Assembly: GCA_037305845.1 (NCBI GenBank)
Contig: CP147778.1
Coordinates: 3,456,001-3,520,000, forward strand
DNA: 64,000 bases
From: Candidatus Freyarchaeum deiterrae
GTDB taxonomy: Archaea; Asgardarchaeota; Jordiarchaeia; Jordiarchaeales; Jordiarchaeaceae
Direction of reading: 5' to 3'
Shown here: positions 15,062-57,300 of the stretch, piece by piece
Layout of the letters: every line of letters begins with the position of its first letter
How positions within the stretch are numbered: position 1 is the stretch's first letter
Position numbers and translations under genes: made by a program
Notes under the pieces: model-generated
Databases searched by the model: none
What the model saw: the letters and a program-made list of their open reading frames with translations, nothing else
What the model was told of the DNA's origin: nothing

Positions 15062-15946
15062 TCAAGCCTTTCCCGCCCTATCCCTACTTATTTTTGATTC
15101 AAGAGGCTTCACTGTCCAAAACGTCGTGTAAAAGACATAAACAAACAGTCCCACCGATAATGCTGATATCATAGCTGAAGCTGCAAGGGCCCCTATACTA
15201 CCAAAATGGGTCAGAACCTGAGTGGAGTCAAACAGTATGTGAAGAAGCACTGCTGCTAAGTAGTATTTCAGCGTTTTACCTCTGACCAGACCGTAGCCAA
15301 TGATAGCTGCGCTAGAAGCGTGGAACAGTAATGCGGGTGCTCTGCCAAAAATCCCGATTAAGGGAAGCCCCAACAGACTGGGTCCGAGATAGAACAACGA
15401 TAGCTCCGTTAACAAAGAACTGATATTAGAAATCAACCCCGGAAGATAATAAAGATTAAGGAGTAGAGTCTGCGGCGTTTGAGGCAGTGTTACCAGCACA
15501 TTAAGAAACGTTAGATCATATAACAGGGAGCTTATAATCGGATAATAAGATAACACAAAGCTCATTAGATAGGTCAAATCTTCTCCACCTGCAAATCCCA
15601 GTCCCACCACCATTCCGTAGAATGCTCCGTTCCTCTCGTTCATCCTTCTCCTTATGAATGGGATCAGGAGGACCAGGAGTTTCGCTGCTTCCTCAATGAA
15701 GCCTATGGGTAAGAGGTAAAGAACGTAACCGTAAAGAGGCACTCTAGCGAATAACCGATTACTACCTGTTTCTCCGATTAAAGCCAAGAGTATAACTACG
15801 TATCCCAGTATGAACGCTGCTAGAAGGTAGCGGTAGGGTTCCTGTTCAAATCTCAACTTCTTCATCAGAAGCCAGATGGCTAAAGGAACAAGAATGCAAA
15901 TTGCAATCCCAGTTATAAACGCGAGTAGTGTGTCCAATTTTTTCAT
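15062..15946 (-). CDS. PrsW/YhfC-family glutamic intramembrane protease, copy 1
   Basis: GFIEEAAK, GLGFAGGE, R-x6-H, LLHILFD motifs in a polytopic membrane protein. Confidence 0.8.
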   Translation of the reverse strand: MKKLDTLLAFITGIAICILVPLAIWLLMKKLRFEQEPYRYLLAAFILGYVVILLALIGETGSNRLFARVPLYGYVLYLLPIGFIEEAAKLLVLLIPFIRRRMNERNGAFYGMVVGLGFAGGEDLTYLMSFVLSYYPIISSLLYDLTFLNVLVTLPQTPQTLLLNLYYLPGLISNISSLLTELSLFYLGPSLLGLPLIGIFGRAPALLFHASSAAIIGYGLVRGKTLKYYLAAVLLHILFDSTQVLTHFGSIGALAASAMISALSVGLFVYVFYTTFWTVKPLESKISRDRAGKA

Positions 15947-16154: not shown

Positions 16155-16230
16155 TTGTTTTTGCGTTAAACTATTTCTCAATTTTTTCGTTAAGCTTCTT
16201 TTTTCCCGTTTTTGCACTGAGTTGTTTTTT
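16155..16230. repeat. Diverged third copy of T-rich repeat B
   Basis: ctatttctcaattttttcgttaagcttcttttttcccgtttttgcactgagttgttttt aligns with ctattttttcaatttttggtttatgcttcttttttctttttttcgctgagttgttttc at 17972-18029. Confidence 0.55.
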
Positions 16231-16244
16231 TAATACGGATACTA

Positions 16245-16425
16245 CCCCGCTCCATCCCTCTCTCGTCCTGCTAACGGGCACAATGCCGCGTCACGGCTCA
16301 CCTTCCATAGTCTTACTAGAATTAGTATGAGGGTAGACCGTGAGAAGACTAGCAGGAGGGAGGGAGGGCGGCCGTTGGAACGGCCGGGAAAGACGGCATG
16401 GTGGGGATTTATGCTCGCTCATGCC
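16245..16425. ncRNA. Candidate structured non-coding RNA (GC-rich multi-stem element), family unknown
   Basis: GC island in AT-rich intergenic DNA. Stems TCCTGCTA/TAGCAGGA (extended by C-rich/G-rich arms), CACGG/CCGTG, GGCCGTT/AACGGCC, GGCATG/CATGCC. Confidence 0.5.
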
Positions 16426-16521
16426 AGTACATTTGTTCGCGTAAATTTTTTAAAGCTCTTGCTGCTATATTGTAACAAAATTTACTTTATTTTTAAGTGA
16501 ATTAGGATGAGGTGAATAATA

Positions 16522-17505: not shown

Positions 17506-17720
17506 AGCAGCAGGAATTTTCCCTATTGTTAACCATTCAATAGGATGAAAATTCACTCATTGCCGCGGCGATACCAAAGTAGAAACCAGTGAAAGATAAC
17601 GTTCTAACCTTAATCTTCCCTTTTTTTATATCAACTATCGAAACTCTTCTAACTAGCCAGTTCCCAATTTTTTGATTTTGTTTTTTCTTATTTTTTTAAA
17701 TTTTTCACTTATCCTTTTTT

Positions 17721-17925
17721 TCCCTTTTTTCACACGGTTCTCTAAAGGCTCTGCAACAACAAAATAATGGAACCAGTCAAATGCCTGAAACTTCTCGGCC
17801 CGAGAGAAAGCTGGTCACGAGAAAGATACATAACTCTGTCAGATTAGTTTCTTATCTCTGCGATTAACAAGCCTTCTCCCATTGTGTGAGGAGATAAAAA
17901 ACATTCAAAAGAGTTGTAATTAAAA
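17721..17925. repeat. Inverted repeat A, left arm (~205 bp)
   Basis: Reverse complement of 24053-24254; about 14 substitutions and one 3-bp indel by manual alignment. Confidence 0.92.
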
Positions 17926-17953
17926 CTTTTGTAAAACCAAACACAGACTTACA

Positions 17954-18061
17954 TTTTGTTATTGTTTTTTCCTATTTTTTCAATTTTTGGTTTATGCTTC
18001 TTTTTTCTTTTTTTCGCTGAGTTGTTTTCTTTTTTTGGTTACTTTTTTCGATTTTTCGCAA
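17954..18061. repeat. Inverted repeat B, left arm (~108 bp)
   Basis: Near-identical reverse complement of 21961-22069. Confidence 0.9.
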
Positions 18062-18157
18062 GTCATTTGGTGGCAGTTCTGAGGCAATCCAGTATTACCA
18101 AAAATCAAAATCTTCGCATAGAACAAAACATAATAAAAATAGAATTGCCCAAAAGAT

Positions 18158-18817
18158 TTAGAGTTTGAGGAGTATACCTCTACAATCGGGCATATCGAAT
18201 TCCAGCAATCGGTAATCTGTGCGTTTCTCAGACAGTCTAGAAATTCCTGAACAGTTCATTTTTAGAATCCAGCATAAAGGAGTACCATCATCTCTGAAAA
18301 GCTCCTCCGCCTGAACCGTTCGGCAGCAGTCTTTATACAAGCAATTACTGACTGTCAAGTTCAGAGTTTCGGAGTCTACCTTTTGATAGGAAGAGTGAAC
18401 ATCAACCCTAATAGAGTTAAGATACTCGAAACATTTTTGCGTAGCATCATAAATATCAGAAATCTTCAGACATTCTTTTCCTACCAGACTCGCATCCAAA
18501 ACCAGTTCAACAACCTTGTTGAAACCGTCCTCCCCACTCCTCATAGAGGCTCGGTAATCCCTATCAGCTTCAAGAAAACCGTAGAGAACAGCATTCCAGG
18601 GATCCTCAATTTTATCAATTACTTGTAGTCCGTAGTCTCGGAAACTATCAACCGTTTCAAGGGTGGATGGCCTTTTACCAGTTCTGCTATAAAGATAGTT
18701 CCCCATGTGGCGTAGAGCTATTCTCATATAGTTTTTACCCAGAATTTTTTGAATCCTGCCAGCGATCTGCAAAAACCATTGAAACAGCCAAACCTTATCA
18801 ACTTCAACCTCAACCAA
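18158..18817 (-). CDS. Hypothetical protein with Cys-containing V4R / methanogen-output-domain-like C-terminus
   Basis: LTVSNCLYKDCC...PLCWI...DCRGIL pattern; fold is inference. Confidence 0.5.
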   Translation of the reverse strand: MVEVEVDKVWLFQWFLQIAGRIQKILGKNYMRIALRHMGNYLYSRTGKRPSTLETVDSFRDYGLQVIDKIEDPWNAVLYGFLEADRDYRASMRSGEDGFNKVVELVLDASLVGKECLKISDIYDATQKCFEYLNSIRVDVHSSYQKVDSETLNLTVSNCLYKDCCRTVQAEELFRDDGTPLCWILKMNCSGISRLSEKRTDYRLLEFDMPDCRGILLKL

Positions 18818-18883
18818 TCTGATACGCCCTCTGAACCTTTCTCAACACTTTTACATGTTTGGAGATATTAATTTTGCTATGGC

Positions 18884-19972
18884 TTAAACTTGCTTGTTCT
18901 CTCCATTTTCTTCTAGACTCTTTATTCTCATCTCTAGATCTTTCACCACTGATTCGGGATACCAGGTTTCCACCTCTCCCTTGAGAGGCATGCCGCACCG
19001 GGAGCAGTAATCATTAGAGGAAATATTAGCCTCCTTGCATCGGGGACACACCACCTGACCCATAGAATTATCCTTAACATCCACACTGATACCAGAAACT
19101 CTCAGAACTTCACGCACAACCTCTTTACCGGAGAGATGGCTGTAGACACCCGGCATGTTACTCGTAGACTTCCATCCGAAAAAGCCCTTCATAGTCTGAT
19201 CGGAGAGCCAGGTTGAGAGCTCGGTGGCCCGAATGTGTCTCATCAAGTGTACGTAGGTACGCTTGCTTATGCCCGCTTTCTTAGCGCAATTTTTAATTAT
19301 CCTCCAAATGGAGACCGCCGATAAACGCTTGCCACGTGAACTGAGCCATAGTGGAGCGCTCTTATCATTCGGTAAAGTAGATAGGTATTCACCCAGAACT
19401 CCGGCACTGCTGATTAAGGGTATTGTGCGAGGTCCGGTCTTGCCCTCCACGCTGAGCATGAACCCGTAATTAACAGGGATGATAGAACTAATATTAAGCC
19501 CCCTAAGCTCCTCTCTCCTTATACCCGACTCCAAAAGCACGCTTAAAAGAGCTCTATCACGGAGTGTTCTGGCACTATTAACGAGTCGTGCTATTTCCTC
19601 TTTATCCAGAAGGTCCTCCGACTTTATTTTTGTTCGAATGGAAGGAACCCTTATCCAATCCGCCCGAGAACTATCATTGCCTTTATCCAGCCACTGGTAG
19701 AAGGCACGGATGCAAATTCGGTATAGTCTAATAGAGGAATCTGAAACCTCATGTCTTTCTCTTTTTCTTTCGAGTTCGCCGAAAAATTTCTTAAGATCCG
19801 CCGCTGTGACTTCTTCAAAGTCTTTCCCTAGGTAATCCACTAGTAGGCTTACCGATTTTTCGTAATTCTTTAAAGTCAGAGATTTTACCTGCGATTCTGC
19901 CCTCTTGTCGTTAAGAAACTTACTGAGGAGCTCTTTCTGACCCGTACTAAGCGTGTAATGCCTTTGCCGCAT
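18884..19972 (-). CDS. Tyrosine recombinase/integrase with C-terminal zinc ribbon
   Basis: Catalytic set ESGIRREEL (R), EGKTG (K), HLMRH (HxxR), FFGW (W), VYSHLS (Y); SAM-like N-domain; CPRC...CSRC. Start MRQRH at 19972. Confidence 0.92.
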   Translation of the reverse strand: MRQRHYTLSTGQKELLSKFLNDKRAESQVKSLTLKNYEKSVSLLVDYLGKDFEEVTAADLKKFFGELERKRERHEVSDSSIRLYRICIRAFYQWLDKGNDSSRADWIRVPSIRTKIKSEDLLDKEEIARLVNSARTLRDRALLSVLLESGIRREELRGLNISSIIPVNYGFMLSVEGKTGPRTIPLISSAGVLGEYLSTLPNDKSAPLWLSSRGKRLSAVSIWRIIKNCAKKAGISKRTYVHLMRHIRATELSTWLSDQTMKGFFGWKSTSNMPGVYSHLSGKEVVREVLRVSGISVDVKDNSMGQVVCPRCKEANISSNDYCSRCGMPLKGEVETWYPESVVKDLEMRIKSLEENGENKQV

Positions 19973-20087
19973 AGGGTTTTCCCCTTGGAAAATGGTGGAA
20001 AATGCTTGAAAAGTATGGGGCGGAACTCCTATATAAAGGTAACATTTCATAAAGGTAAATGTTCTCGAAAGGAACATTTCATTCTCT

Positions 20088-20384
20088 TCAGATCACCCAT
20101 CTTCCCACTAAATCCAGCCGGTACTCCTCCATTGAGGCGTCATAAACCCTGATGGGCACAAATCCCCTCAGAACCATTAACAGGTTAGGAGTAATTATCT
20201 TGGTAAACTCTATGTCACTAGTTTGATACTTCCCGCATAGTTTATTTAATGATTCCTTAAGAAACCCCTTCTGCTTACTAAACACCGCCCAAATATAGAG
20301 CTTTCTTTCGGATTTGCGGTAGCCTCCTATCATAACTCCTTTTTCATCAGAAATTTCGAACGATTCAAGATCTTTCGCTACCAT
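20088..20384 (-). CDS. Small hypothetical protein upstream of the integrase
   Basis: 98-aa ORF from MVAKD, co-oriented with the integrase; LYIWAVFSKQKG is weakly GNAT-like. Confidence 0.45.
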   Translation of the reverse strand: MVAKDLESFEISDEKGVMIGGYRKSERKLYIWAVFSKQKGFLKESLNKLCGKYQTSDIEFTKIITPNLLMVLRGFVPIRVYDASMEEYRLDLVGRWVI

Positions 20385-20996
20385 TCCAACGCTTCCCTTA
20401 AACTTTTCAAAATTCAAACTCCTTGCATAAATAGGAAAACCATGCAAACAAACTAAGCTCACTGAGTACAAATGCTGCGACAGATAAGAAATATGTTTTG
20501 GTACCACCAAAATGAGCTACTAGATATACTCGAAAAATGAGGCGTTTACTCGATTTTCAAAATGGGTCGAGGCTCGAAAACTTTCTCAGAAATCAAGAAA
20601 AATAATGTTAAAACAGAAGAATTGATTTTTTCTCGGTTTTAGGCTACCGCCGCAAATTCTTTCGTCCATAGCCGCAAAAAGCGAAGCATATAGTATCGAT
20701 ATCTTGATAGGGGAAGATGGAACAAGCCGCAATAACTAACAATTAGTTATATCGGTAACTGGTTGAGCTTCATTTTAGTATTGTATTTTCGACCATCATT
20801 TCACATCGGATGACAGTTGGTGGGTTATAATGTTTCTTGAAAAGTAATGTTAATTGGCCTAGAAGAGTTACAATAATTCTGGTGGAGGAAAAAACGAAAA
20901 ATAAATTGAGTTTGGAATACTTTTCCTATTACCAAAACGTTTATAATATTTATTTAACCCAAATCCCATCATAAACAGAAATAGAGGGTACAAGTA

Positions 20997-21815
20997 TTGG
21001 ATGGGCTTGGAGTTATATTCGCGACTGTGTTTTCTGTGCTTTATCCCTTAATCATCTGGCTTCTGATAAAGAAAGTGAGATTCGAACGGGAACCCTATCG
21101 CTACCTTTTGGCAGCGTTCATACTGGGAGCGGCAGTATTCTACTTAGCGTATCTTAGAAAGTTATATGTGTTGTTCTTCAGCGGTTTGGCTCTTTACTCT
21201 GTTGACCTTGTAGCCACGGGTTTCATTGAGGAAGCAGCAAAACTCCTGATCCTGGTCATCCCCTTCATAAGAAGAAGAATGGACGAGAGGAACGGAGCAT
21301 TCTACGGACTGGTGGTAGGACTGGGCTTCGGAGGAGGAGAAGCCATACTGTTGCTGGCTTCGGCGGCGGCGTCATATTCTTCAAATCAACTCGGTCTACT
21401 TCTTGATCTAACGGCTCTTAATAGTCTGGCAATGCAGCCTCTTACACAAATGCAGAGTCTGCTTGTGGGTATCTTTGTCCTTCCCCAACTAATCTCTGAA
21501 ACCAATGCGTTGTTATCACTAATTTTCGGATTCAATCTTTTGGGAATTTCCCCAATAGCGATTTATGAGAGAATATTCACGATACTTTTCCACGCCTCTA
21601 CGGCAACTCTCATAGGCTACGGTCTGGTCAGAGGTAAGACTCTCAAGTACTATATGGCAGCGGTGGCTCTGCACATATTTCTAGACTTCTTTGCGATTCT
21701 TTACCTACTCGGTTTTACAGAGCTCATTGTGACTGAAACTATAATCACGGCAATCTCGCTACCACTGTTTGTCTATGTATTGTACAAGAAAGTTTTAACA
21801 GTGAATGCCTCTTAA
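20997..21815 (+). CDS. PrsW/YhfC-family glutamic intramembrane protease, copy 2
   Basis: GFIEEAAK, GLGFGGGE, ERIFTILFHA, LHIFLD; long identical blocks with 15062-15946 (PYRYLLAAFILG, IGYGLVRGKTLKYY). Confidence 0.8.
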   Translation: MDGLGVIFATVFSVLYPLIIWLLIKKVRFEREPYRYLLAAFILGAAVFYLAYLRKLYVLFFSGLALYSVDLVATGFIEEAAKLLILVIPFIRRRMDERNGAFYGLVVGLGFGGGEAILLLASAAASYSSNQLGLLLDLTALNSLAMQPLTQMQSLLVGIFVLPQLISETNALLSLIFGFNLLGISPIAIYERIFTILFHASTATLIGYGLVRGKTLKYYMAAVALHIFLDFFAILYLLGFTELIVTETIITAISLPLFVYVLYKKVLTVNAS

Positions 21816-21960
21816 TCAAAAAAGTGAATGCGATTGGAATGACTTGATTTCTTCCATTCTTAATTTTTTTATTTCTTCTATTTTTAACCTGTTTTGTTTT
21901 TTGTGCTGCCGAGTTAGATTCTGGTAATACTAAACTGCCTCGGAACTGCCTCCAAGCCAT

Positions 21961-22069
21961 TTACGAAAAATCGAAAAAAGTAACCAAAAAAAGAAAACAA
22001 CTCAGCGAAAAAAAGGAAAAAGAAAGCATAAACCAGAAATTGAAAAAATAGGAAAAAACAATAACAAAA
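21961..22069. repeat. Inverted repeat B, right arm
   Basis: Reverse complement of 17954-18061. Confidence 0.9.
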
Positions 22070-22399
22070 GTGAGCGGATGTCCAAAAACTTGGCTGGTGT
22101 AAAAGGGTGTTTGAGGGAAATGCCTCGGGATGATCTCCACTGTGGGCAGGAATTGTTAAGGACCAGATTGGTTGTTTATCATCTAGAGGAAGGATTTCAT
22201 TAAAAGCAGTTAAAGAGTTAGTCTGTGTTCGGTTGATACAGTCAACTTAAGGTTTATTTGGAGGGAGCCTCCTATTTTTGGATTATGCTGTGTATTACTT
22301 TTGAGAGATGGATGACTCCTCCGGAGATTATTCAATTTTCCCTGAATTTATACTTTGGGTATACCCCCTCTTCAAGAGCAAGGTATAAATAAAAACAAA

Positions 22400-22618
22400 A
22401 TGAGCTTAACCAATGCTAATAAGAGCGTCGAGAAGGTTCCACACAAGCCTGAGAAGTTTCGATCAGACAAAAAAAACGATGATGAGAAGTTTTAAAACTA
22501 TAATAAATGGATTAACAAAGGTAATGCTCTTCGTCTGCGTGGTAAATTTGAGGAAGCCCTAAAATGCTATGATGAGGCCGCCAAAATAGACCCAAGTATT
22601 CCACGCCCATCCATATAG
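22400..22618 (+). pseudogene. TPR-gene remnant with an in-frame stop
   Basis: MSLTNAN...DDEKF*NYNKWINKGNALRLRGKFEEALKCYDEAAKIDP; TAA at 22493. Confidence 0.6.
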
Positions 22619-22948
22619 ACCGTTTCAAACCCCCACCCACACGCTCAAGCAGAATTTTTCAGTGTAGAAGTTAGGGGATATTCACCACCCCAGCTCTTAG
22701 TGGGTAAGACATCCTGTAATTTAACCTTTTCCAAACCCCCAAGGTGGTGAAGAATGGTTCGATTTCTCCTCTAAAATACGCGTTTATTGAGGCTTCTTTC
22801 CCGATTTAGAGCCTTAAAAAAAGAAGGCAAACCAAGTAAATCTGCATCGCCAGTTCACTGGAATTCCTCCAAATGGACCTTAAGTTGGCACTAATGTTAA
22901 GAAATTGCTCGGTCATTTCATCTCCTGTACTACTGACATTTAAATCAC

Positions 22949-23626
22949 CTAATAGCTTATTTCATAACGGTTTTTACCTATCTTTCTTCTCTTATACCTT
23001 CCTCTGTGAATATTACCATCATATTTTCTATAAATGTAGACTTTTTTAAATTCCTTCCACAATTTTTTTACTAGCTCCACATATAGCTCAATTATTATCT
23101 TCAATTCCGAGTCAGATGGAACATAAGCATGATGTACACACTTATTTCTATAACTTACGAGAGGTTCTAAATTTTTTTTCTCCAGTATTGTAAATTTTAA
23201 ATTTAATGATTCAATAGTTTCTAGATATTCTATAATTTTTTCTGACTTCTTTGTCAATGTAACTTTATTATACTTGATACTACCACCGCAGTGTGGACAT
23301 GAACTAACAATCTCATTTCTAGGTTTAAATTCACATACTTCACATAACCAGTCAATAATTAACTCAAAGGAACATAAGAAGATAACAGAAATCAACCAAT
23401 TGGGCTGAATAAATTTTAAAAATGTATTTGTATTTTGGTCACAATATTCCCATGATAATTTTTCAGGTACTTTATTATTAGACATAAACTTGTGAGCAAG
23501 TTCTCTATGAAACCAACTCTCAGAAATCTCTTTTGATATAATAGAGGCATCACTACCAAGAGATAATAGTAACTTTAATTCTTCACTAATATTCTTCAAT
23601 ATTTTCTTCATCTCCTTCTCTGACAT
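22949..23626 (-). CDS. AT-rich hypothetical protein with HEPN-like RxxxxH motif and CxxC zinc finger
   Basis: YRNKCVHH motif in a helical context after ...FELIIDWL; CEVC and CPHC. Confidence 0.6.
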   Translation of the reverse strand: MSEKEMKKILKNISEELKLLLSLGSDASIISKEISESWFHRELAHKFMSNNKVPEKLSWEYCDQNTNTFLKFIQPNWLISVIFLCSFELIIDWLCEVCEFKPRNEIVSSCPHCGGSIKYNKVTLTKKSEKIIEYLETIESLNLKFTILEKKNLEPLVSYRNKCVHHAYVPSDSELKIIIELYVELVKKLWKEFKKVYIYRKYDGNIHRGRYKRRKIGKNRYEISY

Positions 23627-24052
23627 AAATATCTCCTTCTTCTCATTCTACTCCACTTCTTTATCTCTCAAAGAGTTAATAGCCTCAAGCACTCCTTGAT
23701 CCCAACTCTGGGACTCCAACGTTTTCAAATCCCCACAATCTATAACATGGAACATCTCGTCGCGACGTAAGATTAGATTATTCTTCAGGTCTAATAACAA
23801 ACGGTACTGTACAAAGTCTACAACCCCCCAAGCAATTTATTAAACTCTTCCCAGATTTTACTATTTTCAGCTCAATTCACCCCCTCTACAAGAGTTTTAC
23901 ATGGGTTTTTAGCTCAAACATAGGGAGAATTTGACCTGATCCTCCCCCTTTTAGTAAATTTTATTTATTAAAAAAAGGATCCATATAGGGAAAAAATCCT
24001 CGTCATTTTAGGCTAGCCAAAAAATTCAATAACCTTATGTAACCGAAATATA

Positions 24053-24254
24053 TTTTAATTATATCTCTTTTGAATGTTTTTTATCTCTTCGCATAATGTG
24101 AGAAGGCTTGTTAATCGCAGATATAGGAAACTGGTCTGACAGAGTTATGTATCTTTCTCGTGACCAGTCTTCTCTTGGGCCGAGAAGTTTCAGGCATTTG
24201 ACTGGTTCCATTATTTTGTTGCGGAGCCTTTAGAGAACCGTGTGAAAAAAGGGA
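24053..24254. repeat. Inverted repeat A, right arm
   Basis: Reverse complement of 17721-17925; ends 10 bp before the ATG at 24265. Confidence 0.92.
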
Positions 24255-27293: not shown

Positions 27294-27325
27294 ACAACCA
27301 GATATAGGAACTGCTGGCTACGCTT

Positions 27326-28147
27326 TTAATCACGGAAATACTTGATTTTTCTTTCTATTCGGAAAATGTAGAAGTATCTAGCAGGATTCTCGATTACGTA
27401 AGGTTCAAAGAAGTCAACACACTTCTGCATCTCTTCCCTTACTCCATCAGAATTCTCAAGATTCAAGTAGTCTAAGTCAATTTTTCTATGGACAGCGAAC
27501 CTTATTTTACCATCCTTCTGACGCGATGCAACAAAGGGGATAACCGTTGCTCCAGTTTCTTTGGCAAGCAGTATAATGCCTGGGGAGAAGAGAGCTTTTT
27601 TTCCCAAAAAATTAGCTTCGATAGGATGCTTACCCTGCATACCGTCAATAAAGATGAGTAGAATTTCATTTCTATTTAGGCACTGCTTCATTTCTTCAAA
27701 GGAGGAAACCGTGCTAAAATGATTCCCAAAAACATTCTTAGTAATACTAGCGATCCTTCCCCAAATAGAAACATTGATGGGATAGCCTCTACCTGCAAGG
27801 TAGAACGGTATCGGTACACTTTCCGAATGCATAGAAAAAAAGATAACACCATGCCCCAAGGCGAGTCCCTTATCCAGATTATCCAACCCTTTGGGGATAG
27901 ACATTCCCGCAAGTTTTTTCTCAGGCAGCCTACCACAAAATAAAAAGTCTACAGAAGTTTTATATTGACTAATAAGAAGGCCTCTCGCCAAGTGGCGAGC
28001 CGCATCATCACTGAGCCCTGGGAAAAAGTAGGTAACATTTCGCATATATTCCGCATAATCGCCTAGAAGAAATTTGAGTCGGGCGTAGAAATCCATGGCA
28101 AGGTAAACAAGCCTCAGGGGAAGCCAGCGAGCAGTAAAGTACAGCAC
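27326..28147 (-). CDS. Lysophospholipid acyltransferase, lipid A lauroyl acyltransferase (LpxL/HtrB)-like
   Basis: KGLDNLDKGLALGHGVIFFSMH, LLIFID, FLGKKA...GIILLAKETGATVIP, VIENPARYFY; may start at a CTG near 28180. Confidence 0.75.
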   Translation of the reverse strand: MLYFTARWLPLRLVYLAMDFYARLKFLLGDYAEYMRNVTYFFPGLSDDAARHLARGLLISQYKTSVDFLFCGRLPEKKLAGMSIPKGLDNLDKGLALGHGVIFFSMHSESVPIPFYLAGRGYPINVSIWGRIASITKNVFGNHFSTVSSFEEMKQCLNRNEILLIFIDGMQGKHPIEANFLGKKALFSPGIILLAKETGATVIPFVASRQKDGKIRFAVHRKIDLDYLNLENSDGVREEMQKCVDFFEPYVIENPARYFYIFRIERKIKYFRD

Positions 28148-28464
28148 TTCTCGAATAAGTAAAACGCTAATTCGACTCAGACAAACACCTTTTAAAGAAT
28201 TATACTCTTTAACAAGAAGACTAACAGAATTTATTTTTTTCGGAAAAAGAACCTAAAAAATTTCTGGCTGGCTCTATAGTTCAAGTAGGTAGTCAAGCTC
28301 CACATCTTCTCTTAACCTGTTAAACTTTTGATTAGAAAATGCTTGTCGTAGAACGCTGACCAGAATTAACTGTCAGTACATTAGTTAATCGAAAAAAATT
28401 ATTAAGGTGTTACAGATTATAATTTAATTTATAGCCAATTGAGTATTGTTGTGGAGAATACAAA

Positions 28465-46476: not shown

Positions 46477-46820
46477 AACACCAGCAATCCTCCTCCAACA
46501 CAAAATTTATTAGAACAGTAGAAAATATAATGAAAATATAACACTATTGTATATTTATCTCTTAAAAAGGTCGTTGAACGACAAACAACCGTTACCGAAA
46601 CCAATGGAACGGAACGAACGAGGAGAGAGAGGAGGAATAAAAACTGAAACAGACACTCCCACTCTTTCTCAGGTTCACAGACGATAAGCAGAAAAAGGGA
46701 AGAGGGAAACGAGGACTCCAAAACATACTAACTAACTAATAGTATTAGTATTGGAGCCTTGCCCTACACAGAAACTTAATTGTTTCTCCTATTAAAAAAA
46801 ACTAATCAAATGAAAATTGA
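46477..46820 (+). promoter_or_regulatory. Conserved promoter and structured 5' leader, copy 1
   Basis: Direct repeat of 49522-49897 and 53978-54329; TATA-like TATTTAT near 46552, palindrome GTCGTT-G-AACGAC, several conserved stems. Confidence 0.65.
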
Positions 46821-49427
46821 GTGAAAACTATGAAAAGCATCAGGCGAAATAAGAAAGCACTAAAGATAACAGCAGTCTTAGCAGCAGTTCTACTCACGGC
46901 AACAATCGTCACAGCGGTTACAGCAATCCAGAACCGGAACACTGTCCCGCTCATCAACTTATACCTGCAGGGCGTCTCGCCAAGTCCTAGCAACGCCATA
47001 ATTCAACCAAAGACTATTCCCATGAGTGGTTACAACATATTGAACGGAAGCGTCTACTATGATAGTATAACTGTGACTGCGAACAACACAGTGATAGACG
47101 GAAACGGATCCACCGTGCAGGGCTCCGGAACTGGGTACGGCTTCTACTTAAATGGAGTAAGCAACGTAACCATCTATAACGTCGCAGTTACAGGGTGGGA
47201 CTACGGCTTCTACCTATCCTCCAGCTCAAACAACAATCTTTCTGGTAACACCGCAAACAACAACGCCAACTACTACGGCTTCTACCTGTACAGTAGCTCG
47301 AACAACAATACTCTCTCGAGTAACACAGCAAACAGCAACTGGGTCGGCTTCGTCCTAGACTCCAGCTCCAACAATACTCTCTTGGGTAACACAGCACACT
47401 TCAATACTGCGGCCGGCTTCGCCCTAGGCCCCAGCTCGAACAACAATACTCTCTCGGGTAACACAGCCACAGATAGCTTAGACGTATATAGCGAAGGCTT
47501 CGGCCTAGGTTCCAGCTCGTACAATAATCTTTCGGGTAATACAGCAGAACACAACACGCGCGGCTTCTACCTGTACGGCGGCTCAAACAACAATCTTTCG
47601 GGTAACACGGCAAACGAGAACATTGGCTACCGTGATGACAGCGGCCATAATACGCCCGGCGTCGGCTTCTTTCTAACTAGTACCTTGAGCAATATTCTTT
47701 CAGGTAACACCGCTTACGACAGCCAATGGGCCGGCTTCTGGCTAACCTCTGGCTCGAACTACAATAATCTTTCGGGTAACAACGCAAATAACTGGCCCTT
47801 TACCCCCGCCGTCTACGGTTTCGAGGTAACCTCCGGCGAAACCTACCTAGTGCCCAGCTCTTACAATACTCTTTCGGGTAACACCGCAAACAACAACCAA
47901 ATGGGCTTCTACCTATACGACGGCTCGGGCAACAATAATCCGGGCAATAATCTTTCGGGTAACAACGCCACAAACAACAACAACAATGGCTTCCTCCTAG
48001 AAGGCAGCTCGAATAATAATCTTACAAATAACACCGCAAACAACAACGGCGGTAACGGCTTCGTGCTATACTCCACCGTTGACCCGGCTCACCATTGGTG
48101 GCTCAGATCCAACAACAATATTCTTTCGGGCAACACCGCAAACAACAACAACGAAGGCTTCTACGTGTACCAAAGCTTGAACAACACTCTTTTGGGTAAC
48201 AAGGCAAACAACAACAGGCATACAGGCTTCCACCTGTACGGCGGCTCAAACAACAACAATCTTTCGGGTAACAACGCTACGAACAACAACAATTACGGCT
48301 TCTATTTGGAAACTAATTCGTTTGGTAACAACCTTCCGGGTAACATCGCTTTAAACTGTACGACTGGAGGATACAACTGGAGTGGTGACTGTATCAATAA
48401 TAATTTTACGGGTAGCGTGGAGGCGTACTATCTGCGTGTGAACGTCACCGATGTTCTGGGCTCTCCTATTTCCGGCGTGGACGTTAACGTGGTGACCGAT
48501 GGAACAAGTGTGTATCGCTCGTCACACTTTGGTGGTACTGACCCCCCAACCGGCTCTAATGGTGTCACCTCCTGGATCGCGGTCGCCTACAGGACATTCA
48601 TAACAAGCGATACCATGACTGAGAACACCACCAATGCTACCGTGTACTATCAGGGTCGTCCCATCTCAGGAAGCAACCCTAGGACAGTCAACATGTCCAC
48701 ATCACAAGTGGAAACCTTCATCGTGGACACCACCCCACTCACAGTGAACATCACCTCACCCACCAATGGTACGCTGTTTAACACCGGCAGTGTTACAGCC
48801 ACTTGGACTGTTAGCGTCCCCTCGATAGTAGATCACTACGAGGTCAGAATTGAAGGAGGCAACTGGAACAACATGGGAACTAGCACCAGCAACACTTTCA
48901 GCGGTTTGTTCGACGGTTCTCACACGGTTGATGTTATGGTCTTCGACCTTGCGGGTAACAACGCTAACGCCTCAGTGTTCTTCACCGTGGACACCACCCC
49001 ACCTACGGTGAGCATTACCTCGCCCACCAATGATACGCTGTTTAACACTAGCGGTGTTACGGTCACTTGGACTGGTAGCGACGCCCTCTCGGGCATAGCT
49101 TATTTTGAGGTTAGTACTGATGGGGTTAACTGGAGCAATGTAACTACGAGTTTCAGCTATAATTTCACCGGTCTCTCAGACGGCTCTCACACCGTTGATG
49201 TTAGGGCTTGGGACCTTGCGGGTAACAACGCTAACGCTTCTGTATCCTTCACCGTGGCTTCCGTGCAACCAGGACAATCTCAGGCTATGCTTCTGGCTCT
49301 CTTGTCGTTGGCTGGAACGCTGGGAGGAGGCACCAGTCCTCTGGTTTACGCTGCCATCATTGGTGTCGTGGGCGTGGGTGTAGTGGCTGCTGGTTTGATC
49401 TACTACTTCCGAAAAGTGAACGCTTAA
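46821..49427 (+). CDS. Surface protein: right-handed beta-helix (NosD/CASH) repeats, 2 Ig-like domains, C-terminal TM anchor
   Basis: Signal peptide, GFYL-x-SS-x-NN-x-LSGNTANNN repeats, DTTPP...DLAGN domains, TM followed by YYFRKVNA. Confidence 0.9.
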   Translation: MKTMKSIRRNKKALKITAVLAAVLLTATIVTAVTAIQNRNTVPLINLYLQGVSPSPSNAIIQPKTIPMSGYNILNGSVYYDSITVTANNTVIDGNGSTVQGSGTGYGFYLNGVSNVTIYNVAVTGWDYGFYLSSSSNNNLSGNTANNNANYYGFYLYSSSNNNTLSSNTANSNWVGFVLDSSSNNTLLGNTAHFNTAAGFALGPSSNNNTLSGNTATDSLDVYSEGFGLGSSSYNNLSGNTAEHNTRGFYLYGGSNNNLSGNTANENIGYRDDSGHNTPGVGFFLTSTLSNILSGNTAYDSQWAGFWLTSGSNYNNLSGNNANNWPFTPAVYGFEVTSGETYLVPSSYNTLSGNTANNNQMGFYLYDGSGNNNPGNNLSGNNATNNNNNGFLLEGSSNNNLTNNTANNNGGNGFVLYSTVDPAHHWWLRSNNNILSGNTANNNNEGFYVYQSLNNTLLGNKANNNRHTGFHLYGGSNNNNLSGNNATNNNNYGFYLETNSFGNNLPGNIALNCTTGGYNWSGDCINNNFTGSVEAYYLRVNVTDVLGSPISGVDVNVVTDGTSVYRSSHFGGTDPPTGSNGVTSWIAVAYRTFITSDTMTENTTNATVYYQGRPISGSNPRTVNMSTSQVETFIVDTTPLTVNITSPTNGTLFNTGSVTATWTVSVPSIVDHYEVRIEGGNWNNMGTSTSNTFSGLFDGSHTVDVMVFDLAGNNANASVFFTVDTTPPTVSITSPTNDTLFNTSGVTVTWTGSDALSGIAYFEVSTDGVNWSNVTTSFSYNFTGLSDGSHTVDVRAWDLAGNNANASVSFTVASVQPGQSQAMLLALLSLAGTLGGGTSPLVYAAIIGVVGVGVVAAGLIYYFRKVNA

Positions 49428-49495
49428 AATGGGGGCTGGAGGGCTTTCGGCCGATTGTTCGGGGGTCTTGCCTCGGCTCCTCCTTTTTTTGTTTT
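49428..49495 (+). terminator. Conserved 3' hairpin plus T-tract, copy 1
   Basis: Stem around loop CCGATTGT followed by TTTTTTGTTTT; repeated after all three beta-helix genes. Confidence 0.6.
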
Positions 49496-49521
49496 AAGTA
49501 TTATTTCTTCCCTCATATACT

Positions 49522-49897
49522 AGGTTGGAACGGTGAAAACACCGGCAATCCTCCTCAAACACAAATTTTATTAGAACAGTCAAAAATATATAAAAAACAT
49601 AATAAAAATATAACACAATTTTATATTTATATCTTAAAAAGGGTCGTTGAACGACAAACAACCGTTGTTGAAACCAACGGAACGGACGAGGAGAGAGAGA
49701 GAGCAGGAATAAAAAACCGAAACAGACACTCCCCACTCTTTCTCAGGTTCACAGACGAGAAGCAGAAGAAAAAGGGAAGAGGGAAACAAGGTCTCCAAAA
49801 CATACTAACTAACTAACTAATAGTAGTAGTAGTGGAGCCTTGCCCTACGTAGAAACTTAACTGTTTCTACATAAAAAACTAATCAAATGAAAATTGA
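49522..49897 (+). promoter_or_regulatory. Conserved promoter and structured 5' leader, copy 2
   Basis: Direct repeat of 46477-46820. Confidence 0.65.
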
Positions 49898-52800
49898 GTG
49901 AAAACTATGAAAAGCATCAGGGAAAATAAGAAAGCACTAAAGATAGCAGCAGTTCTAGCAGCAATTCTCCTAACAGCAACAATCATCACAGCGGTTACAG
50001 CAGTCCAGAACCAGAACCGGAACACTATCCCGCTCATCAACGCGTACCTGATGGGCTTCTCCCCAAGCCCTAACAACGCCATCATTCTACCAAAGATGGA
50101 CGTAAATAGTAGCATCACGTTAAGCGGAGGCGTCTACACCGAACAGATAAATGTGGTAGCGAGCAACATAGTGATAGACGGAAACGGATCCACCGTGCAG
50201 GGCTTCCAACACGATTCTGGCATCATCCTAAATGGCGTAAACCACGTAACCATCTATAATGTCGAAGTCACAGGGTGGTACAGAGGCTTCGAACTAGAGT
50301 CCAGCTCTTACATTACTCTTTCGGATAACACCGCAACCGACAACTACTTTGGCTTCTACCTAGGCTCCAGCTCAAACAATACTCTTTCGGATAACACCGC
50401 ATACAATAACAACAACATAATCGGCTTCTACCTAGACTCCAGCTCGAACAATATCCTTTCGGGTAACACTGCAAACAACAATCAATTTCACGGCTTCGTC
50501 CTGTGGAATAGCCCGTACAATACTCTTTCTAGTAACACGGCAACCAACTGCGGCGCGAGCGGCTTTGTCTTGACCGGAAGCTCTTACAATATTCTTTCGG
50601 GTAACACCGCAACAAACAATCAATTTGACGGCTTCTGCCTATCCTCCAGCTCGAACAATAATACTCTTTCGGGTAACACAGCAAACAACAACGACTGGGG
50701 AGCCAGCTACAACTCCGCTGGCTTCTTACTATCCTCCAGCTCGAACAATAATACTCTTTCGGGTAACATCGCATACAATAACTGCTACTACAGCTTCTGG
50801 CTATCCTCTAGCTCTTACAATACTCTTTCAGGTAACACCGCAAACAACAACACCAACGGCGAAGGCTTCTACCTAGGCTCCAGCTCTTACAATAATCTTA
50901 CGGGTAACAATGCAAACAACAACCTCAACGGCGGCTTCATCCTAGACAGCAGCTCGTCGTACAATAATCTTTCGGGTAACATGGCAAACAACAACTACTA
51001 CGGCTTCCAACTAGGCTCCAGCTCAAACTATATTATTTCTGGCAACACCGCAAACAACAACAACATAGGCTTCTACCTGTATAATAGCGCAAACAACAAT
51101 AATCTTACGGGTAACAACGCAACCAGCAACACACAATACGGCTTCTACCTAGACACCAGCTCTAACAATACTCTTTCAGGTAACACTGCAAACAACAACG
51201 GCCACTGCGGCTTCTTCCTATCCTCCGGCTCGACCAATACTCTTTCTGATAACACAGCAAACAACAACAGCTACTACGGCTTCTGGCTAGCCTCTAGCTC
51301 GACCAATACTCTTTCTGATAACACAGCAAACAACAACAGCTACTACGGTTTTTCCCTAGATTTCAGCTCGACCAATACTCTTTCTGATAACACAGCAAAC
51401 AACAACGGCTACGACGGCTTCTTCCTATCCTCCGGCTCGACCAATATTCTTTCTGATAACACAGCAAACAACAACAGCCACTACGGCTTCTACCTAGACT
51501 CCAGCTCAGACAATAATCTTTTGGGTAATAGCGCAAACAACAACGGCTACGACGGCTTCTTCCTAACTTCCAGCTCGGGCAGCAACACTCTTTTTAATAA
51601 CACAGCAAACAGCAACAACGATGGGTTCTACATATATTCCGGCTCCAATAATATTACAAATAACACCGCAAACAACAACTACTGGGACGGCTTCCTCCTA
51701 GCCCAAGGCTCGTATAGTAATCTTTCTGATAACACTGCAAGCAACAACGGCATCGCAGGCTTCTGCCTAGCCTCCAGCTCGAACAATATTACAAATAACA
51801 CCGCAAACAACAACCACTACGGCTTCGATCTAGCCAGCAGTTCAACCTACAATACTCTTTCTGGTAACACGGCAAACAACAACACCGACTCCGGTTTCTA
51901 CATAACCGACAGTTCAACCTACAATACTCTTTCTGGTAACACGGCAAACAACAACACCGACTCCGGTTTCTACCTATCCACGAACAACAATAATCTTTCG
52001 GGCAATAATAATGCAACCAACAACAACTACGGGTTCAACTTAAAGTCCAGCTGGTACAATATTCTTTCTGGCAACACCGCAAACAACAACGCTGAGCACG
52101 GTTTCGGCTTATCCAACAGCTCTTACAATAATCTTTCCGGCAACACAGCAAACAACAACCTTCTGGGCTTCTACCTACACTACAGCTCTTACAATAATCT
52201 TTCCGGCAACACAGCAAACAACAACAGCATAAGCTTCTACTTAGACTCCAACTCCAATAATAATACTCTTTCTGGTAACACGGCAAGCAACAACACCGAC
52301 TCCGGTTTCTACATAGATCCTTCGTATAACAATGTTCTTTCGGGTAACACTATAGTGGGGTGTGGATTATTTGTGTCCGGTTCTCTTTCATCCTTAGAGT
52401 CGAATACTATTGATCAGAGTAACACTGTGAATGGAGAGACCCTCTACTACTACGTGGATGAGAGTGGTCTTTCTCCGGCAGATTTCGTAAACGCTGGTCA
52501 GGTGATACTGGTCAATTGCGCCAATTCATGGATTTCCGGACTAAACATTTCTAACACCAACGCAGGAATCCAGTTATACTACTCCAGCAACATTACAATA
52601 TCGGAGAATAACATCTCCTTTAACCAGTATGGCATTTACCTGAGTAATTCGAACAACAACATAATTTCAAACAACACAGTAACAAATAGCACCAATTATG
52701 GCTTCTGGCTCGTTTCTTCGAGCTATAATACTCTTACAAGCAACACCGCAAACAACAACAACTATGACAGCTTTAGCTTCTTCCTAAACTCCAGCTCGAA

Positions 52801-53881
52801 CAATAATATTCTTTCTGGCAACACCGCAAACAACAACCTCGGCTTTGGCTTCTTCCTAAACTCCAGCTCGAACAATAATATTCTTTCTGGCAACACCGCA
52901 AACAACAACCTCGGCTTTGGCTTCTTCCTAAACTCCAGCTCGAACAATAATATTCTTGATAACACTGCAAACGACACTGTATGCGGCTTCGTCCTACAAT
53001 CCAGCTCAAACAACAATACTCTAACGGGTAACAATGCAACCAACAACCCCTGGGACGGTTTCCAACTAAGATCCAGCTCATACAATAATCTTTCTAGCAA
53101 CACCGCAAACAACAACGACGAAGGCTTCGAAATATGCGAATACTCGAACAATAATATTCTCTCTGGCAACACCGCAAACAACAACGAAGGCGCCGGCTTC
53201 TACCTATTTATTAACTCGAACAATAATCTTTCTGGCAACATTGCTGCAAATGATCATGTATACGGCTTCCATTTGCAATATTCTTCAGGTAATATCCTCC
53301 GAGGTAACATTGCTTTAAACTGTTCACGTTTTGAAGCTGCATACGCTTGGTCAGATTCTGATTCTCCTAATAATGATTTTACGGGCAGTGTGGAGGAGAA
53401 CTATCTGTGGGTGAACGTCACTGATTCCGGGGGTCAGCCTCTGTCCGAGGCTCAGGTGCTAGTGGTTTCCAACGGAACGACGGTGATTTACGCTACGCCT
53501 TATTTCGGTGGATCAGACTCCCCAACGGGCAATGATGGTTTAACCCTGTGGTTTGCAGTCCCCTACAGGACATTTATAACAAACGAGTTTAGGACTGTGA
53601 ACAATGACACTGTTACCGTGTGGTATTCCACTCCTTCGGAGATAGCTAGTTTTCAGTTGAATCCAAGGACAGTTGACATGTCTACTTCACACCAAGAAAA
53701 CTTCACCTTGGGTTCTTGGCAACCAACACAATCTCTCATAATGCTCTCCGCTCTTCTGCTGTCGTCGGCTGGAACGCAGGGAGGCACCAGCCCGCTGGTT
53801 TACGCTGCTATCATTGGTGTCGTGGGCGTGGTGGTAGTGGCTGCTGGTTTGTTCTACTACTTCCGCAGAGTGAACACTTAA
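49898..53881 (+). CDS. Surface protein: extended NosD/CASH beta-helix with C-terminal TM anchor
   Basis: Dozens of 22-24-aa PbH1 repeats, NTVNG...YYY...AGQVILVNC insert, TM followed by YYFRRVNT. Confidence 0.9.
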   Translation: MKTMKSIRENKKALKIAAVLAAILLTATIITAVTAVQNQNRNTIPLINAYLMGFSPSPNNAIILPKMDVNSSITLSGGVYTEQINVVASNIVIDGNGSTVQGFQHDSGIILNGVNHVTIYNVEVTGWYRGFELESSSYITLSDNTATDNYFGFYLGSSSNNTLSDNTAYNNNNIIGFYLDSSSNNILSGNTANNNQFHGFVLWNSPYNTLSSNTATNCGASGFVLTGSSYNILSGNTATNNQFDGFCLSSSSNNNTLSGNTANNNDWGASYNSAGFLLSSSSNNNTLSGNIAYNNCYYSFWLSSSSYNTLSGNTANNNTNGEGFYLGSSSYNNLTGNNANNNLNGGFILDSSSSYNNLSGNMANNNYYGFQLGSSSNYIISGNTANNNNIGFYLYNSANNNNLTGNNATSNTQYGFYLDTSSNNTLSGNTANNNGHCGFFLSSGSTNTLSDNTANNNSYYGFWLASSSTNTLSDNTANNNSYYGFSLDFSSTNTLSDNTANNNGYDGFFLSSGSTNILSDNTANNNSHYGFYLDSSSDNNLLGNSANNNGYDGFFLTSSSGSNTLFNNTANSNNDGFYIYSGSNNITNNTANNNYWDGFLLAQGSYSNLSDNTASNNGIAGFCLASSSNNITNNTANNNHYGFDLASSSTYNTLSGNTANNNTDSGFYITDSSTYNTLSGNTANNNTDSGFYLSTNNNNLSGNNNATNNNYGFNLKSSWYNILSGNTANNNAEHGFGLSNSSYNNLSGNTANNNLLGFYLHYSSYNNLSGNTANNNSISFYLDSNSNNNTLSGNTASNNTDSGFYIDPSYNNVLSGNTIVGCGLFVSGSLSSLESNTIDQSNTVNGETLYYYVDESGLSPADFVNAGQVILVNCANSWISGLNISNTNAGIQLYYSSNITISENNISFNQYGIYLSNSNNNIISNNTVTNSTNYGFWLVSSSYNTLTSNTANNNNYDSFSFFLNSSSNNNILSGNTANNNLGFGFFLNSSSNNNILSGNTANNNLGFGFFLNSSSNNNILDNTANDTVCGFVLQSSSNNNTLTGNNATNNPWDGFQLRSSSYNNLSSNTANNNDEGFEICEYSNNNILSGNTANNNEGAGFYLFINSNNNLSGNIAANDHVYGFHLQYSSGNILRGNIALNCSRFEAAYAWSDSDSPNNDFTGSVEENYLWVNVTDSGGQPLSEAQVLVVSNGTTVIYATPYFGGSDSPTGNDGLTLWFAVPYRTFITNEFRTVNNDTVTVWYSTPSEIASFQLNPRTVDMSTSHQENFTLGSWQPTQSLIMLSALLLSSAGTQGGTSPLVYAAIIGVVGVVVVAAGLFYYFRRVNT
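52776..52957 (+). repeat. Exact in-frame 72-bp tandem repeat (2.5 copies)
   Basis: gcttcttcctaaactccagctcgaacaataatattctt starts at 52776, 52848 and 52920. Confidence 0.9.
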
Positions 53882-53950
53882 AAATAGGGGCTGGGGCCCT
53901 CGGCTGATTGTTCGGGGGTCTTGCTTCGGCTCCTTCTCTTTTTTTGTTTT
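53882..53950 (+). terminator. Conserved 3' hairpin plus T-tract, copy 2
   Basis: Loop CTGATTGT, same layout as 49428-49495. Confidence 0.6.
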
Positions 53951-53977
53951 AAGTATTATTCTTTCTCCTATGTACTC

Positions 53978-54329
53978 GGTTGGAACGGTGAAAACACCAG
54001 AAATCCTCCTCCAACACAAAATTTATTAGAACAGCAGAAAATATATGAAAAATATACTAAAAATATAACACTATTGTATATTTATATCTTAAAAAGGGCG
54101 TTGAACGACAAACAACCGTTACCGAAACCAACGGAACGGAACGAAGGAGAGGTAGGAGGAATAAAAACTGAAACAGACACTCCCTCCTTCTCAAATTCAC
54201 AGACTAGAAGCAGAAAAAAAGGGAAGAGGGAAACAAGGACTCCAAAACATACTAAAATAAAATTGGAGCCTTGCCCTACGCAGAAACTTAACTGTTTCTA
54301 CATAAAAAAATAATCAAATGAAAATATGA
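53978..54329 (+). promoter_or_regulatory. Conserved promoter and structured 5' leader, copy 3
   Basis: Direct repeat of copies 1 and 2 with a shortened loop and altered but still pairing stem. Confidence 0.65.
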
Positions 54330-57300
54330 GTGAAAACTATGAAAATCATAAGAGGAAACAAGAAAGTATTAAAGATAGCAGCAGTCCTAGCAGCAGTCCT
54401 CCTCACAGCAACAATCATCACAGCGGCTACAGCAATCCAAAACCAGAACCAAAACACTATCCCGCTCATCAACGCGTACCTGATGGGCTTCTCCCCAAGC
54501 CCTAACAACGCCATCATTCTACCAAAGATGGACGTAAATAGTAACATCACGTTAAACGGGGGCGTCTACACCGAAACGATAAATGTTCTGGCGAGCAACA
54601 TAGTGATAGACGGAAACGGGTCCACAGTGCAGGGCTTTTACCCATTTGGATTTGGCTTCAACTTAAACGGCAGAAGCTACGTAACCATTTATAACGTCAC
54701 GGTCACAGGGTGGGACTGCGGCTTCTACCTATACAACAGCTTTAATAACAATCTCACAAATAACAACGCGAACAGCACCAGTACCGGCTTCTACCTGCAA
54801 AGCAGCTCAAACAATATTCTTTCTGGTAACACGGCAAACAACAACGGATACGGCTTCTACCTAGACTCCAGCTCTTACAACAATCTCACAAATAACACCG
54901 CAAACAACAACACCTACGATGGCTTCTACCTAGGGGGCAGCTCGAACAACAATATTCTTTCGGGTAACAACGCAAACAACAACAACTACTACGGCTTCTA
55001 CCTGGGTGGTTCCAATAACAACTTTATTTACCAGAACGATTTTGAAAATAACACTTATAATGCGGTTTCTGATAGCTCAACCAATTTCTGGAACTCCCCA
55101 AGTGAAATTACCTACGTCTACAACGACAAAATTTGCACAAGCTACCTCGGCAACTACTGGAGTGACTACACGGGAAGCGACACCAACGGGGATGATATCG
55201 GAGACACACCCTACATCATCACGGGTGGAGCTCAGGACAATTATCCGCTGATGCAACCCTTTCAGAATTACCTCATTCCCATCTACGTGTGGAATGACTA
55301 CACCTTCACAGGAGACCTCGTCAATCAACCAGTAATTGTGAATGGGTCAAACATAGTGATAAACGGAAACGGCTACACCATACAAGGACCCGGAGTTGGA
55401 GTCGGTTGCGGCTTCAACTTAAATGGCGTGACCAACGTAACCATAGAAAACATCACAGTCACAGGGTGGCAATACGGCTTCTACCTAGACTCCAGCTCGA
55501 ATAATACTCTTACGGGTAACACCGCAAACAACAACACCAACACCGGCTTCTACCTGTCCTACAGCTCGTACAACAATCTCTCGAGTAACACCGCGAACAA
55601 CAACTACTACTACGGCTTCTACCTGGACCATAGCTCGTACAATACTCTCTCGGGTAACACCGCGAACAACGTCACCCTATACGTCGGCTTCTTCCTGTAC
55701 TATAGCTCGTACAATACTCTTTCGGGTAACACCGCAGACAGCAACACCTACTACGGCTTCTACCTATACGGTAGCTCTTACAATACTCTTTCGGGTAACA
55801 CCGCAAACTACAACTACTACGGATTCTACCTAGACGGTATCTCGAACAACAATACTCTTTCGGGTAACATCGCGAACAGCAACAACTACCGCGGCTTCTA
55901 CCTATGGTGGAGCTCGTATAATACTCTTTCGGGTAACACCGCAGACAGCAACACCTACTATGGCTTTGACTTATACATCAGCTCGAACAACGATCTCTCG
56001 GGTAACACCGCAAACTACAATTACTACGGCTTCCGCCTAGACTCCATCTCGGACAATAATAATCTTTCTAATAACACTGCGGACAACAACCCCGGCGTCG
56101 GTTTCTACCTGTATTCTTCGAACTATAATAACCTCTCAGGCAACACCGCGTACGGCAACGGCGACGGCTTCTACCTAGACCGCGGCTCGAGCAGCAACAA
56201 TCTTTCTAATAACACTGCAACTAACAATAATTACGGTTTCGCACTATGCGATAGCTCAAACAATAATAATCTTTCGGGTAACACGGCAGACAGCAACACT
56301 TATGAGAACGGCATCTACGGCGACGGCTTCTGCCTGAACTCTAGCTCGTATAATATTCTTTCTGATAACACCGCAAACAAAAACGGCTTTGGCTTCCACC
56401 TAAACCCCGGCTCTAACTACAATACTCTTTCGGATAACAACGCAACCAACAACTGGCAAGCTGGCTTCTGGCTATACTCCAGCTCAAACAACAATCTTTC
56501 GGGAAACATAGCCACAAACAACCACCAAGGCTTCACCCTAGCAGATAGCTCGAACAACATTCTCTTGGGCAACACCGCGAACAAAAACAGTATAGGCTTC
56601 TATCTGGCCAGCTCTTACAATACTCTTTCGGGTAACACCGCAAACAACAACGACCAAGGCTTCTATATAATCTACGGCTCTTACAATACTCTTTCGGGTA
56701 ACACCGCAAACAACAACGATGTCGCCGGGTACTACCCATGGTCCAGCGACGGTTTCTTCCTATGGTACAGCCCGTACAACAATCTTTCGAACAACACTGC
56801 AAACTACAACAAATGCGGCTTCTACCTAGCCTACAGCTCTTACAACACTCTTTCGGGAAACACTGCAACCAACAACACTTACCACGGCTTCTACCTAGAC
56901 TACAGCTCGGACAACAATATTCTTTCTGGCAACACTGCTCTAAACTGTAATACGGGATACTATTGGTCTTCCGACAGTAGTAATAATGATTTTACGGGCA
57001 GTGTTTGGGCCAACTACCTGTGTGTGAACATCACAGACCCTCTGGGGCTTCCTATTCCTGGCGCAGAGATTAACGTTGAAACCGACGGAACACCGGTATA
57101 CGCTACACCCCATTTTGGAGGTTTAAACGATACAACCGATTCGAATGGTTTAACCCCATGGATCATTGTCACCTACGAGACTGGTACAGGAATAGACCAG
57201 ATGACTTTGAACACCACCAACGTCACCGTGTACTACGCACAGTTGCCCTTCTCAAACAATTCAAGAACGGTTAGCATGTCTGCGTCACATGTAGAAACAT

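Follow-up and report, generated by a model that had tools for sequence, protein, structure and literature searches.

The window analysed here, a 64,000-nucleotide stretch of contig CP147778.1, belongs to the closed 3,576,204 bp chromosome (G000:C1) of the Asgard archaeon Candidatus Freyarchaeum deiterrae, and harbours a gene module in which a tyrosine recombinase is enclosed by a pair of inverted repeats, termed B and B', themselves enclosed by an outer inverted pair, A and A'. The original prediction for this locus, made from the sequence of the window alone, treated the two pairs as nested parts of a single element or switch. Both are present as described, with B longer than was first given, but they have proved to be two separate things, B/B' being found genus-wide and A being private to the Freyarchaeum genome. 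Comparisons were made with five GTDB congeners of the Freyarchaeum/Jordarchaeum genus (G001-G005) and with metagenome loci (L-numbers). According to two papers on the Freyarchaeum genome, it replicates bidirectionally and mobile elements are not discernible in it (PMC11291895, PMC11529989). The module consists of the following features, in window coordinates.

17954..18103, + strand: site B, on the V4R side, with the T-tract array outermost, TTTTCGWAAA-type units, GGAGGCA repeats and a GTAWTACC core
18158..18817, - strand: V4R-like gene without a Pfam match, from a large host paralog family
18884..19972, - strand: tyrosine recombinase, 362 aa from the conserved start, with R152 K178 H242 R245 W267 Y277 and a C-terminal Zn ribbon
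20031..20082, - strand: P-site, inverted arms AAATGTT / AACATTT around nine variable bases, plus a third half-site abutting the recombinase TATA box
20088..20510, - strand: orphan gene, 140 aa; DUF5658 in its place, or nothing, in relatives
20997..21815, + strand: PrsW/YhfC intramembrane protease gene, within the module in every locus long enough
21919..22069, - strand: site B', inverted partner of B on the PrsW side, recently homogenised with it (52-bp identical run)

Architecture and conservation of the module

B and B' are 90.7% identical over 151 nt, the similarity fading towards 18144 and 21876 (85.6% over 195 nt). They are the only strong copies, inverted relative to each other, in the 3.58-Mb genome (hidden Markov model, HMM, E 1e-29; next match E 0.005), which rules out a dispersed repeat. 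A weak possible relic of a further B start lies at 16155-16243 (genome-wide HMM E 0.11). The same arrangement, inverted B/B' around PrsW, a variable gene, the recombinase and, where retained, a V4R-like gene, recurs in all ten loci with both ends assembled, drawn from the congeners and metagenomes. B and the P-site occur only together with the recombinase module, and the sister-family genomes searched yielded neither a recombinase ortholog, B nor the P-site. Extra copies of B decay after rearrangements, while two intact inverted copies persist. The B-to-B' module is a single-copy, vertically inherited locus, situated in the terminus zone of the chromosome.

The 150 nt of B are about as conserved as coding DNA, with a sharp drop in conservation beyond the GTAWTACC core. 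The site is T-rich then A-rich, usually lies between convergent genes, and contains two TTTTCGWAAA-type units 20-21 bp apart and GGAGGCA repeats at 11-bp spacing, one 11-bp unit of which has been exactly deleted in one lineage. Its T-tracts showed no 10.5-bp phasing. Two other identities were considered for B and rejected: a structured RNA, as folding gave z-scores of -1.7 to +0.2 and there is no Rfam match, and a replication origin, as there is neither an origin recognition box (ORB) nor cdc6 nearby and oriC lies at 1.64 Mb.

Identical runs of 48-86 bp link B and B' within four of the ten pairs, where comparisons between genomes give a median of 12 and a 95th percentile of 21; other pairs are just 59-78% alike. 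In most genomes B and B' have different 6-bp core spacers, here at three of six positions. This pattern fits occasional exchange of sequence between the two sites, with no maintained switch.

As the original prediction stated, the module is not a tRNA-integrated element: no tRNA was found by ARAGORN, which misses multi-intron tRNAs, direct att repeats are absent, there is no Rfam match, and A and A' are not bordered on their outer sides by a duplicated target. The gene assignments of that prediction were confirmed, with the tyrosine recombinase (now seen to carry a C-terminal Zn ribbon), PrsW, a tetratricopeptide repeat (TPR) remnant and a weak HEPN match; the V4R label is kept from the first reading. 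The prediction had overlooked a truncated B start, a second PrsW, an IS6-like remnant and, upstream of the recombinase, a conserved palindrome here called the P-site. The V4R-like family has 39 matches in this genome, and since the gene is broken or lost in several relatives it is dispensable cargo.

The recombinase, its candidate site and the replication terminus

The recombinase is the sole PF00589 gene in the closed chromosome and is single-copy in three of the five congeners; the other two have assembly gaps at the locus. In G001 (87% complete), PrsW and B' lie on a 5-kb contig ending short of the recombinase gene. G003, considered as a possible empty site, likewise proved to be a gap, as its contig ends inside B and the mutase gene that flanks the module elsewhere is missing as well. 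All 37 sequences compared keep the catalytic R-K-H-R-W-Y residues unchanged. The ratio of non-synonymous to synonymous substitution (dN/dS) is 0.05-0.08, a sign of strong purifying selection, and dS resembles that of neighbouring housekeeping genes.

Close relatives of the enzyme are annotated as Freyarchaeota/Jordarchaeia. It scores 120 bits against the 220-bit cut-off of the XerA model NF040815, although the XerA-like proteins of Atabeyarchaeia also fall below this (183 bits), and 31 bits against the 267-bit cut-off of the XerS model NF003462. In a 51-row tree with several long branches and a midpoint root, it falls among Zn-ribbon integrases, separate from the XerA-like proteins of Asgard archaea (99/97). 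The nearest solved structures are those of XerA (4A8E, 5HXY), and the closest outside relatives, at 28-40% identity, are provirus-type Zn-ribbon integrases, including full-length proteins at 28-34% identity on viral contigs, two of them beside tRNA-Leu. By these sequence comparisons the recombinase is a provirus-type enzyme, not XerA. Its relatives belong to the tRNA-targeting integrases of archaeal proviruses and integrated mobile genetic elements (PMC6563490, PMC8371274); unlike those, it occupies a single fixed locus with no tRNA, direct att repeats, or viral or plasmid genes.

The P-site, located upstream of the true recombinase start, is unique in the genome and, among 151 Asgard genomes, confined to this genus. 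Its arm cores, ATGTT and AACATTTAC, are invariant in 12 of 12 aligned rows. These features would make it a candidate dif-like site and/or autoregulatory operator. A sigma-70 promoter scan returned chance-level matches, the model being unsuited to archaea.

The cdc6 genes lie at 1.637 and 1.682 Mb, and a long AT-rich gap beside the first holds three ORBs at 1.639-1.640 Mb (1,639,072; 1,639,994; and an inverted one near 1,639,812), making G000:C1:1638800-1642000 the likely oriC. This position, beside cdc6 and not at the record start, is near the cumulative GC-skew maximum, implying a C/A-rich leading strand, opposite to the usual bacterial pattern. A lone ORB-like motif is also found at G000:C1:287377, far from any cdc6. 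Relative to oriC the module stands at 185 degrees in this one closed genome, within the 3.43-3.57 Mb spanned by skew-based terminus estimates, which resolve the terminus to about 140 kb at best, the 8-mer estimate being distorted by repeats. As a control, the XerA-like genes of two closed Atabeyarchaeia genomes stand 176 and 183 degrees away from cdc6, and in one genome of that group, G031, a textbook 11-6-11 dif (L058:10653-10680) precedes xerA by 12 bp, at a place opposite cdc6. G021 has a right arm identical to that of this dif upstream of its own xerA. The literature search returned no paper on an Asgard dif.

A candidate terminus module and its alternatives

The interpretation favoured here, with slightly better than even confidence, is that the locus is a single-recombinase, Xer-like terminus module that has replaced XerA/dif. 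A provirus-type tyrosine integrase would have been domesticated and taken over from XerA in Freyarchaeum/Jordarchaeum, giving rise to a chromosome-maintenance locus at the replication terminus, where recombination between sister copies of a site within it would most likely resolve chromosome dimers. The first candidate crossover site is the P-site, and the second a core within B. B and B' would be protein-bound, orientation-dependent sites held as one inverted pair around the recombinase, either as accessory or second recombination sites, a plausible role, or as polar terminus sites. Occasional B/B' exchange would homogenise the two and make the region a rearrangement hot spot, with A/A' the scar of one event.

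Precedents for such a module come from bacteria. XerS/difSL of streptococci and lactococci and XerH/difH of Helicobacter and Campylobacter likewise employ one recombinase of ~355-362 aa, encoded beside an atypical site as a single module that replaces the usual Xer (PMC5357621). The Freyarchaeum locus similarly has a single-copy, vertically inherited recombinase with intact catalytic residues next to a unique, conserved inverted repeat, which is a candidate crossover site only; it differs in that the enzyme is unrelated and carries a Zn ribbon, the host is an archaeon, and a PrsW gene and two further inverted sites of 150 nt are present. The TTTTCGWAAA units of B resemble the difSL arms as quoted in a review, a likeness that serves as a lead only (PMC5357621). 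Archaeal XerA/dif systems also combine a single chromosomal tyrosine recombinase with a site in the terminus region, as in Thermococcales (PMC2958812), Sulfolobus (PMC3020120) and Atabeyarchaeia, whereas the enzyme here does not reach the XerA cut-off, groups apart from Asgard XerA and lacks an 11-6-11 dif. For Asgard archaea, the literature searched describes neither the completion of replication nor the separation of circular chromosomes; were the proposal correct, XerA would have been replaced by a virus-derived integrase in parallel to XerS and XerH, with candidate sites defined.

Several observations weigh against this proposal. No convincing canonical 11-6-11 dif was found in the window or genome-wide by the scan that recovers the Atabeyarchaeia dif, the P-site overlaps the promoter and may be an operator only, and no described Xer system with a long inverted site pair was found. 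Xer is not obligatory, as PF00589 matches are absent from some Asgard genomes, the single-contig G034 among them. A distance of 46-50 kb separates the module from the exact antipode, the skew plateau is broad, and termini accumulate mobile DNA anyway. One flank of the module in G002 is a gene cluster that lies mid-replichore in the Freyarchaeum genome, and xerA position is variable in Thermococcales (PMC2958812). With a single closed genome, and a random locus being equally close to the antipode ~3% of the time, the terminus position is support, not proof.

A rather unlikely alternative is that the module is a resident mobile element bounded by B/B', rarely moved or flipped by its own integrase, fixed in the ancestor of the genus and without a host function. 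Its integrase does belong to a provirus-type clade, synteny often breaks just outside B or B', and both the window and L082 hold inserted DNA between partial direct repeats of B. Yet there is one copy, with the same neighbourhood in nearly all loci, the P-site and B are found only with this module, dS is like that of host neighbours and dN/dS is very low. The direct att repeats, often in a tRNA, and the empty sites in relatives that mark integrated elements and proviruses were not found, nor were the multiple copies or sites and target duplication that mark transposons, nor any transfer or replication genes.

An unlikely explanation is that B and B' are conserved bidirectional terminators or regulator sites and the P-site an operator, the recombinase having some other or residual role and the terminus position being incidental. 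The T-rich then A-rich composition of B, its usual place between convergent genes and the P-site abutting a TATA box would all suit such a function, which sits poorly with just two copies per genome, near coding-level conservation over 150 nt, the exact 11-bp unit deletion in one lineage and the absence of RNA structure.

Similarly low probability is attached to a bacteria-like terminus built of viral parts, in which the domesticated integrase would act on the P-site as a new dif, with B/B' on either side serving as polar sites for fork arrest or for positioning. In bacterial fork traps (Ter/Tus, Ter/RTP; PMC4999828), as here, a candidate dif opposite the origin lies between sites of opposite orientation, although B/B' are far longer and the analogy would extend to orientation and position only. 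No archaeal fork trap was found in the literature, and Sulfolobus terminates replication by stochastic fork collision (PMC3020120).

Invertible switches such as fim/FimBE and shufflons pair a tyrosine recombinase with inverted sites. The original prediction proposed an active phase-variation switch of this kind, with a 4.1-kb (B) or 6.5-kb (A) segment flipping often in populations, which is improbable here. Inversion has indeed happened in evolution, as was suggested: relative to the kinase/PNPOx flank, one orientation is found in L040/L083, L043, L046, L074 and L082, and the opposite in the window and L080. The long identical B/B' runs described above would fit flipping, as would two precedents: in vitro, the Xer of Sulfolobus flips DNA lying between inverted dif sites (PMC3020120), and Int-pTN3 inverts between ~100-bp repeats (PMC8371274). 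By contrast, orientation is constant within flank groups, ferritin being beside B in the window, L042, L045, L046 and L082, and mutase beside B' in G001, G004, G005 and L077. Nor were clean flips between B and B' seen among close relatives. In the window, ferritin and SDR turned along with the module, and in L080 the old PrsW was left behind and a new PrsW-B' is present, the inner PrsW genes of these two loci grouping together (91/92) in a tree that rules out a clean B x B' flip in L080. Contig ends at B in L079 and L084, examined as signs of flipping, are explained by shared 30-52-bp runs. A frequent switch is therefore unlikely, orientation being fixed within lineages and breakpoints not being clean B x B' swaps. 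Unlike in fim/FimBE and shufflons, the crossover cores are not strictly identical, as the differing core spacers attest, and mixed orientation within a lineage is not in evidence; A is private and 8% diverged, and no promoter is evidently re-pointed by a flip at B.

Misassembly of the repeats, the least probable explanation, might be suggested by short-read contigs breaking at shared B/B' runs (L079, L084), but is unlikely because seven sequencing runs share 74-98% of words with the locus (three may be its source), a Logan contig matches 18029-21993 at 100% identity and the overall genome topology was checked with long reads (PMC11291895), besides which the repeat copies differ by 8-14% and the layout recurs in independent genomes.

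The outer repeat pair, cargo and neighbouring sequence

The outer repeats and the remaining features of the two arms are as follows.

15062..15946, - strand: second PrsW gene, a diverged duplicate from the same lineage-specific rearrangements
17658..17731, + strand: original start of B, now truncated; on the ferritin flank it is collinear with L042, L045 and L046
17721..17925, + strand: repeat A, private to this genome, which copies the DNA upstream of the kinase in inverted form; its junction is at the microhomology TCCCTTTTTTC
17926..17953, + strand: spacer, with an inverted match at 22212-22240 (alignment 17935-17957 / 22212-22234 at 83%)
22235..22893, no strand assigned: IS6-like remnant with ~22-28-bp terminal inverted repeats, containing a TPR fragment and a repeat multicopy in relatives
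22949..23626, - strand: HEPN-like gene (E 0.002, below cut-off), cargo between the right-hand spacer match and A'
24053..24254, - strand: A', upstream region of a GHMP sugar kinase gene, both ends matching the same region in L082

A and A' are 91.7% identical over 205 nt (E 1e-79), these are the only two copies in the genome, and A was not found in any of 40 related genomes (GTDB relatives). In L082, the DNA upstream of the kinase gene matches both ends of A' and runs on into the spacer like the left copy, implying that A' is native kinase upstream DNA. On the left, the original B start breaks into A at an 11-bp microhomology. These junctions suggest that an inverted copy of spacer and A, along with B, was placed in the left site, and that the IS6-like remnant and HEPN-like gene entered the right arm afterwards. 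Parts of the original prediction agree with this history, namely a spacer-like match on the right, a former A-spacer-B inverted block and the gain of cargo by the right arm. Its two alternative switches, or one ~340-bp terminal repeat, are not supported, as A is in no GTDB relative, A' is partly native to the kinase and the flips are not clean B x B' events. From the alignments, A/A' is a one-off duplication or rearrangement scar and not a switch; the nested outer repeat, the most striking feature at first reading, is an ordinary by-product of rearrangement. An insertion sequence, miniature inverted-repeat transposable element (MITE) or gene remnant was also considered for A and rejected, as it has no terminal repeats and its sole homologue is the kinase upstream region.

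Within the IS6-like remnant, 22718-22853 includes a ~110-bp repeat, probably a MITE, that is single here; G003 has about 35 or more copies of it, and G004 and G005 also have many. Both PrsW copies (15062-15946 and 20997-21815) diverge fast, with dN ~0.2 at dS 0.6-0.8 against close relatives, a divergence that comes after the lineage-specific duplication.

Elsewhere in the window, a GC-rich non-coding element upstream of the ferritin gene (16225-16450), 81% identical in L046, is a candidate structured RNA with four compensatory pairs in a two-sequence fold and no Rfam match. Large repetitive genes at 46477-58700 are multi-copy, with many paralogs across the genome, and the acyltransferase gene at 27304-28155 has a second, 93% identical copy at G000:C1:3398432-3399283.

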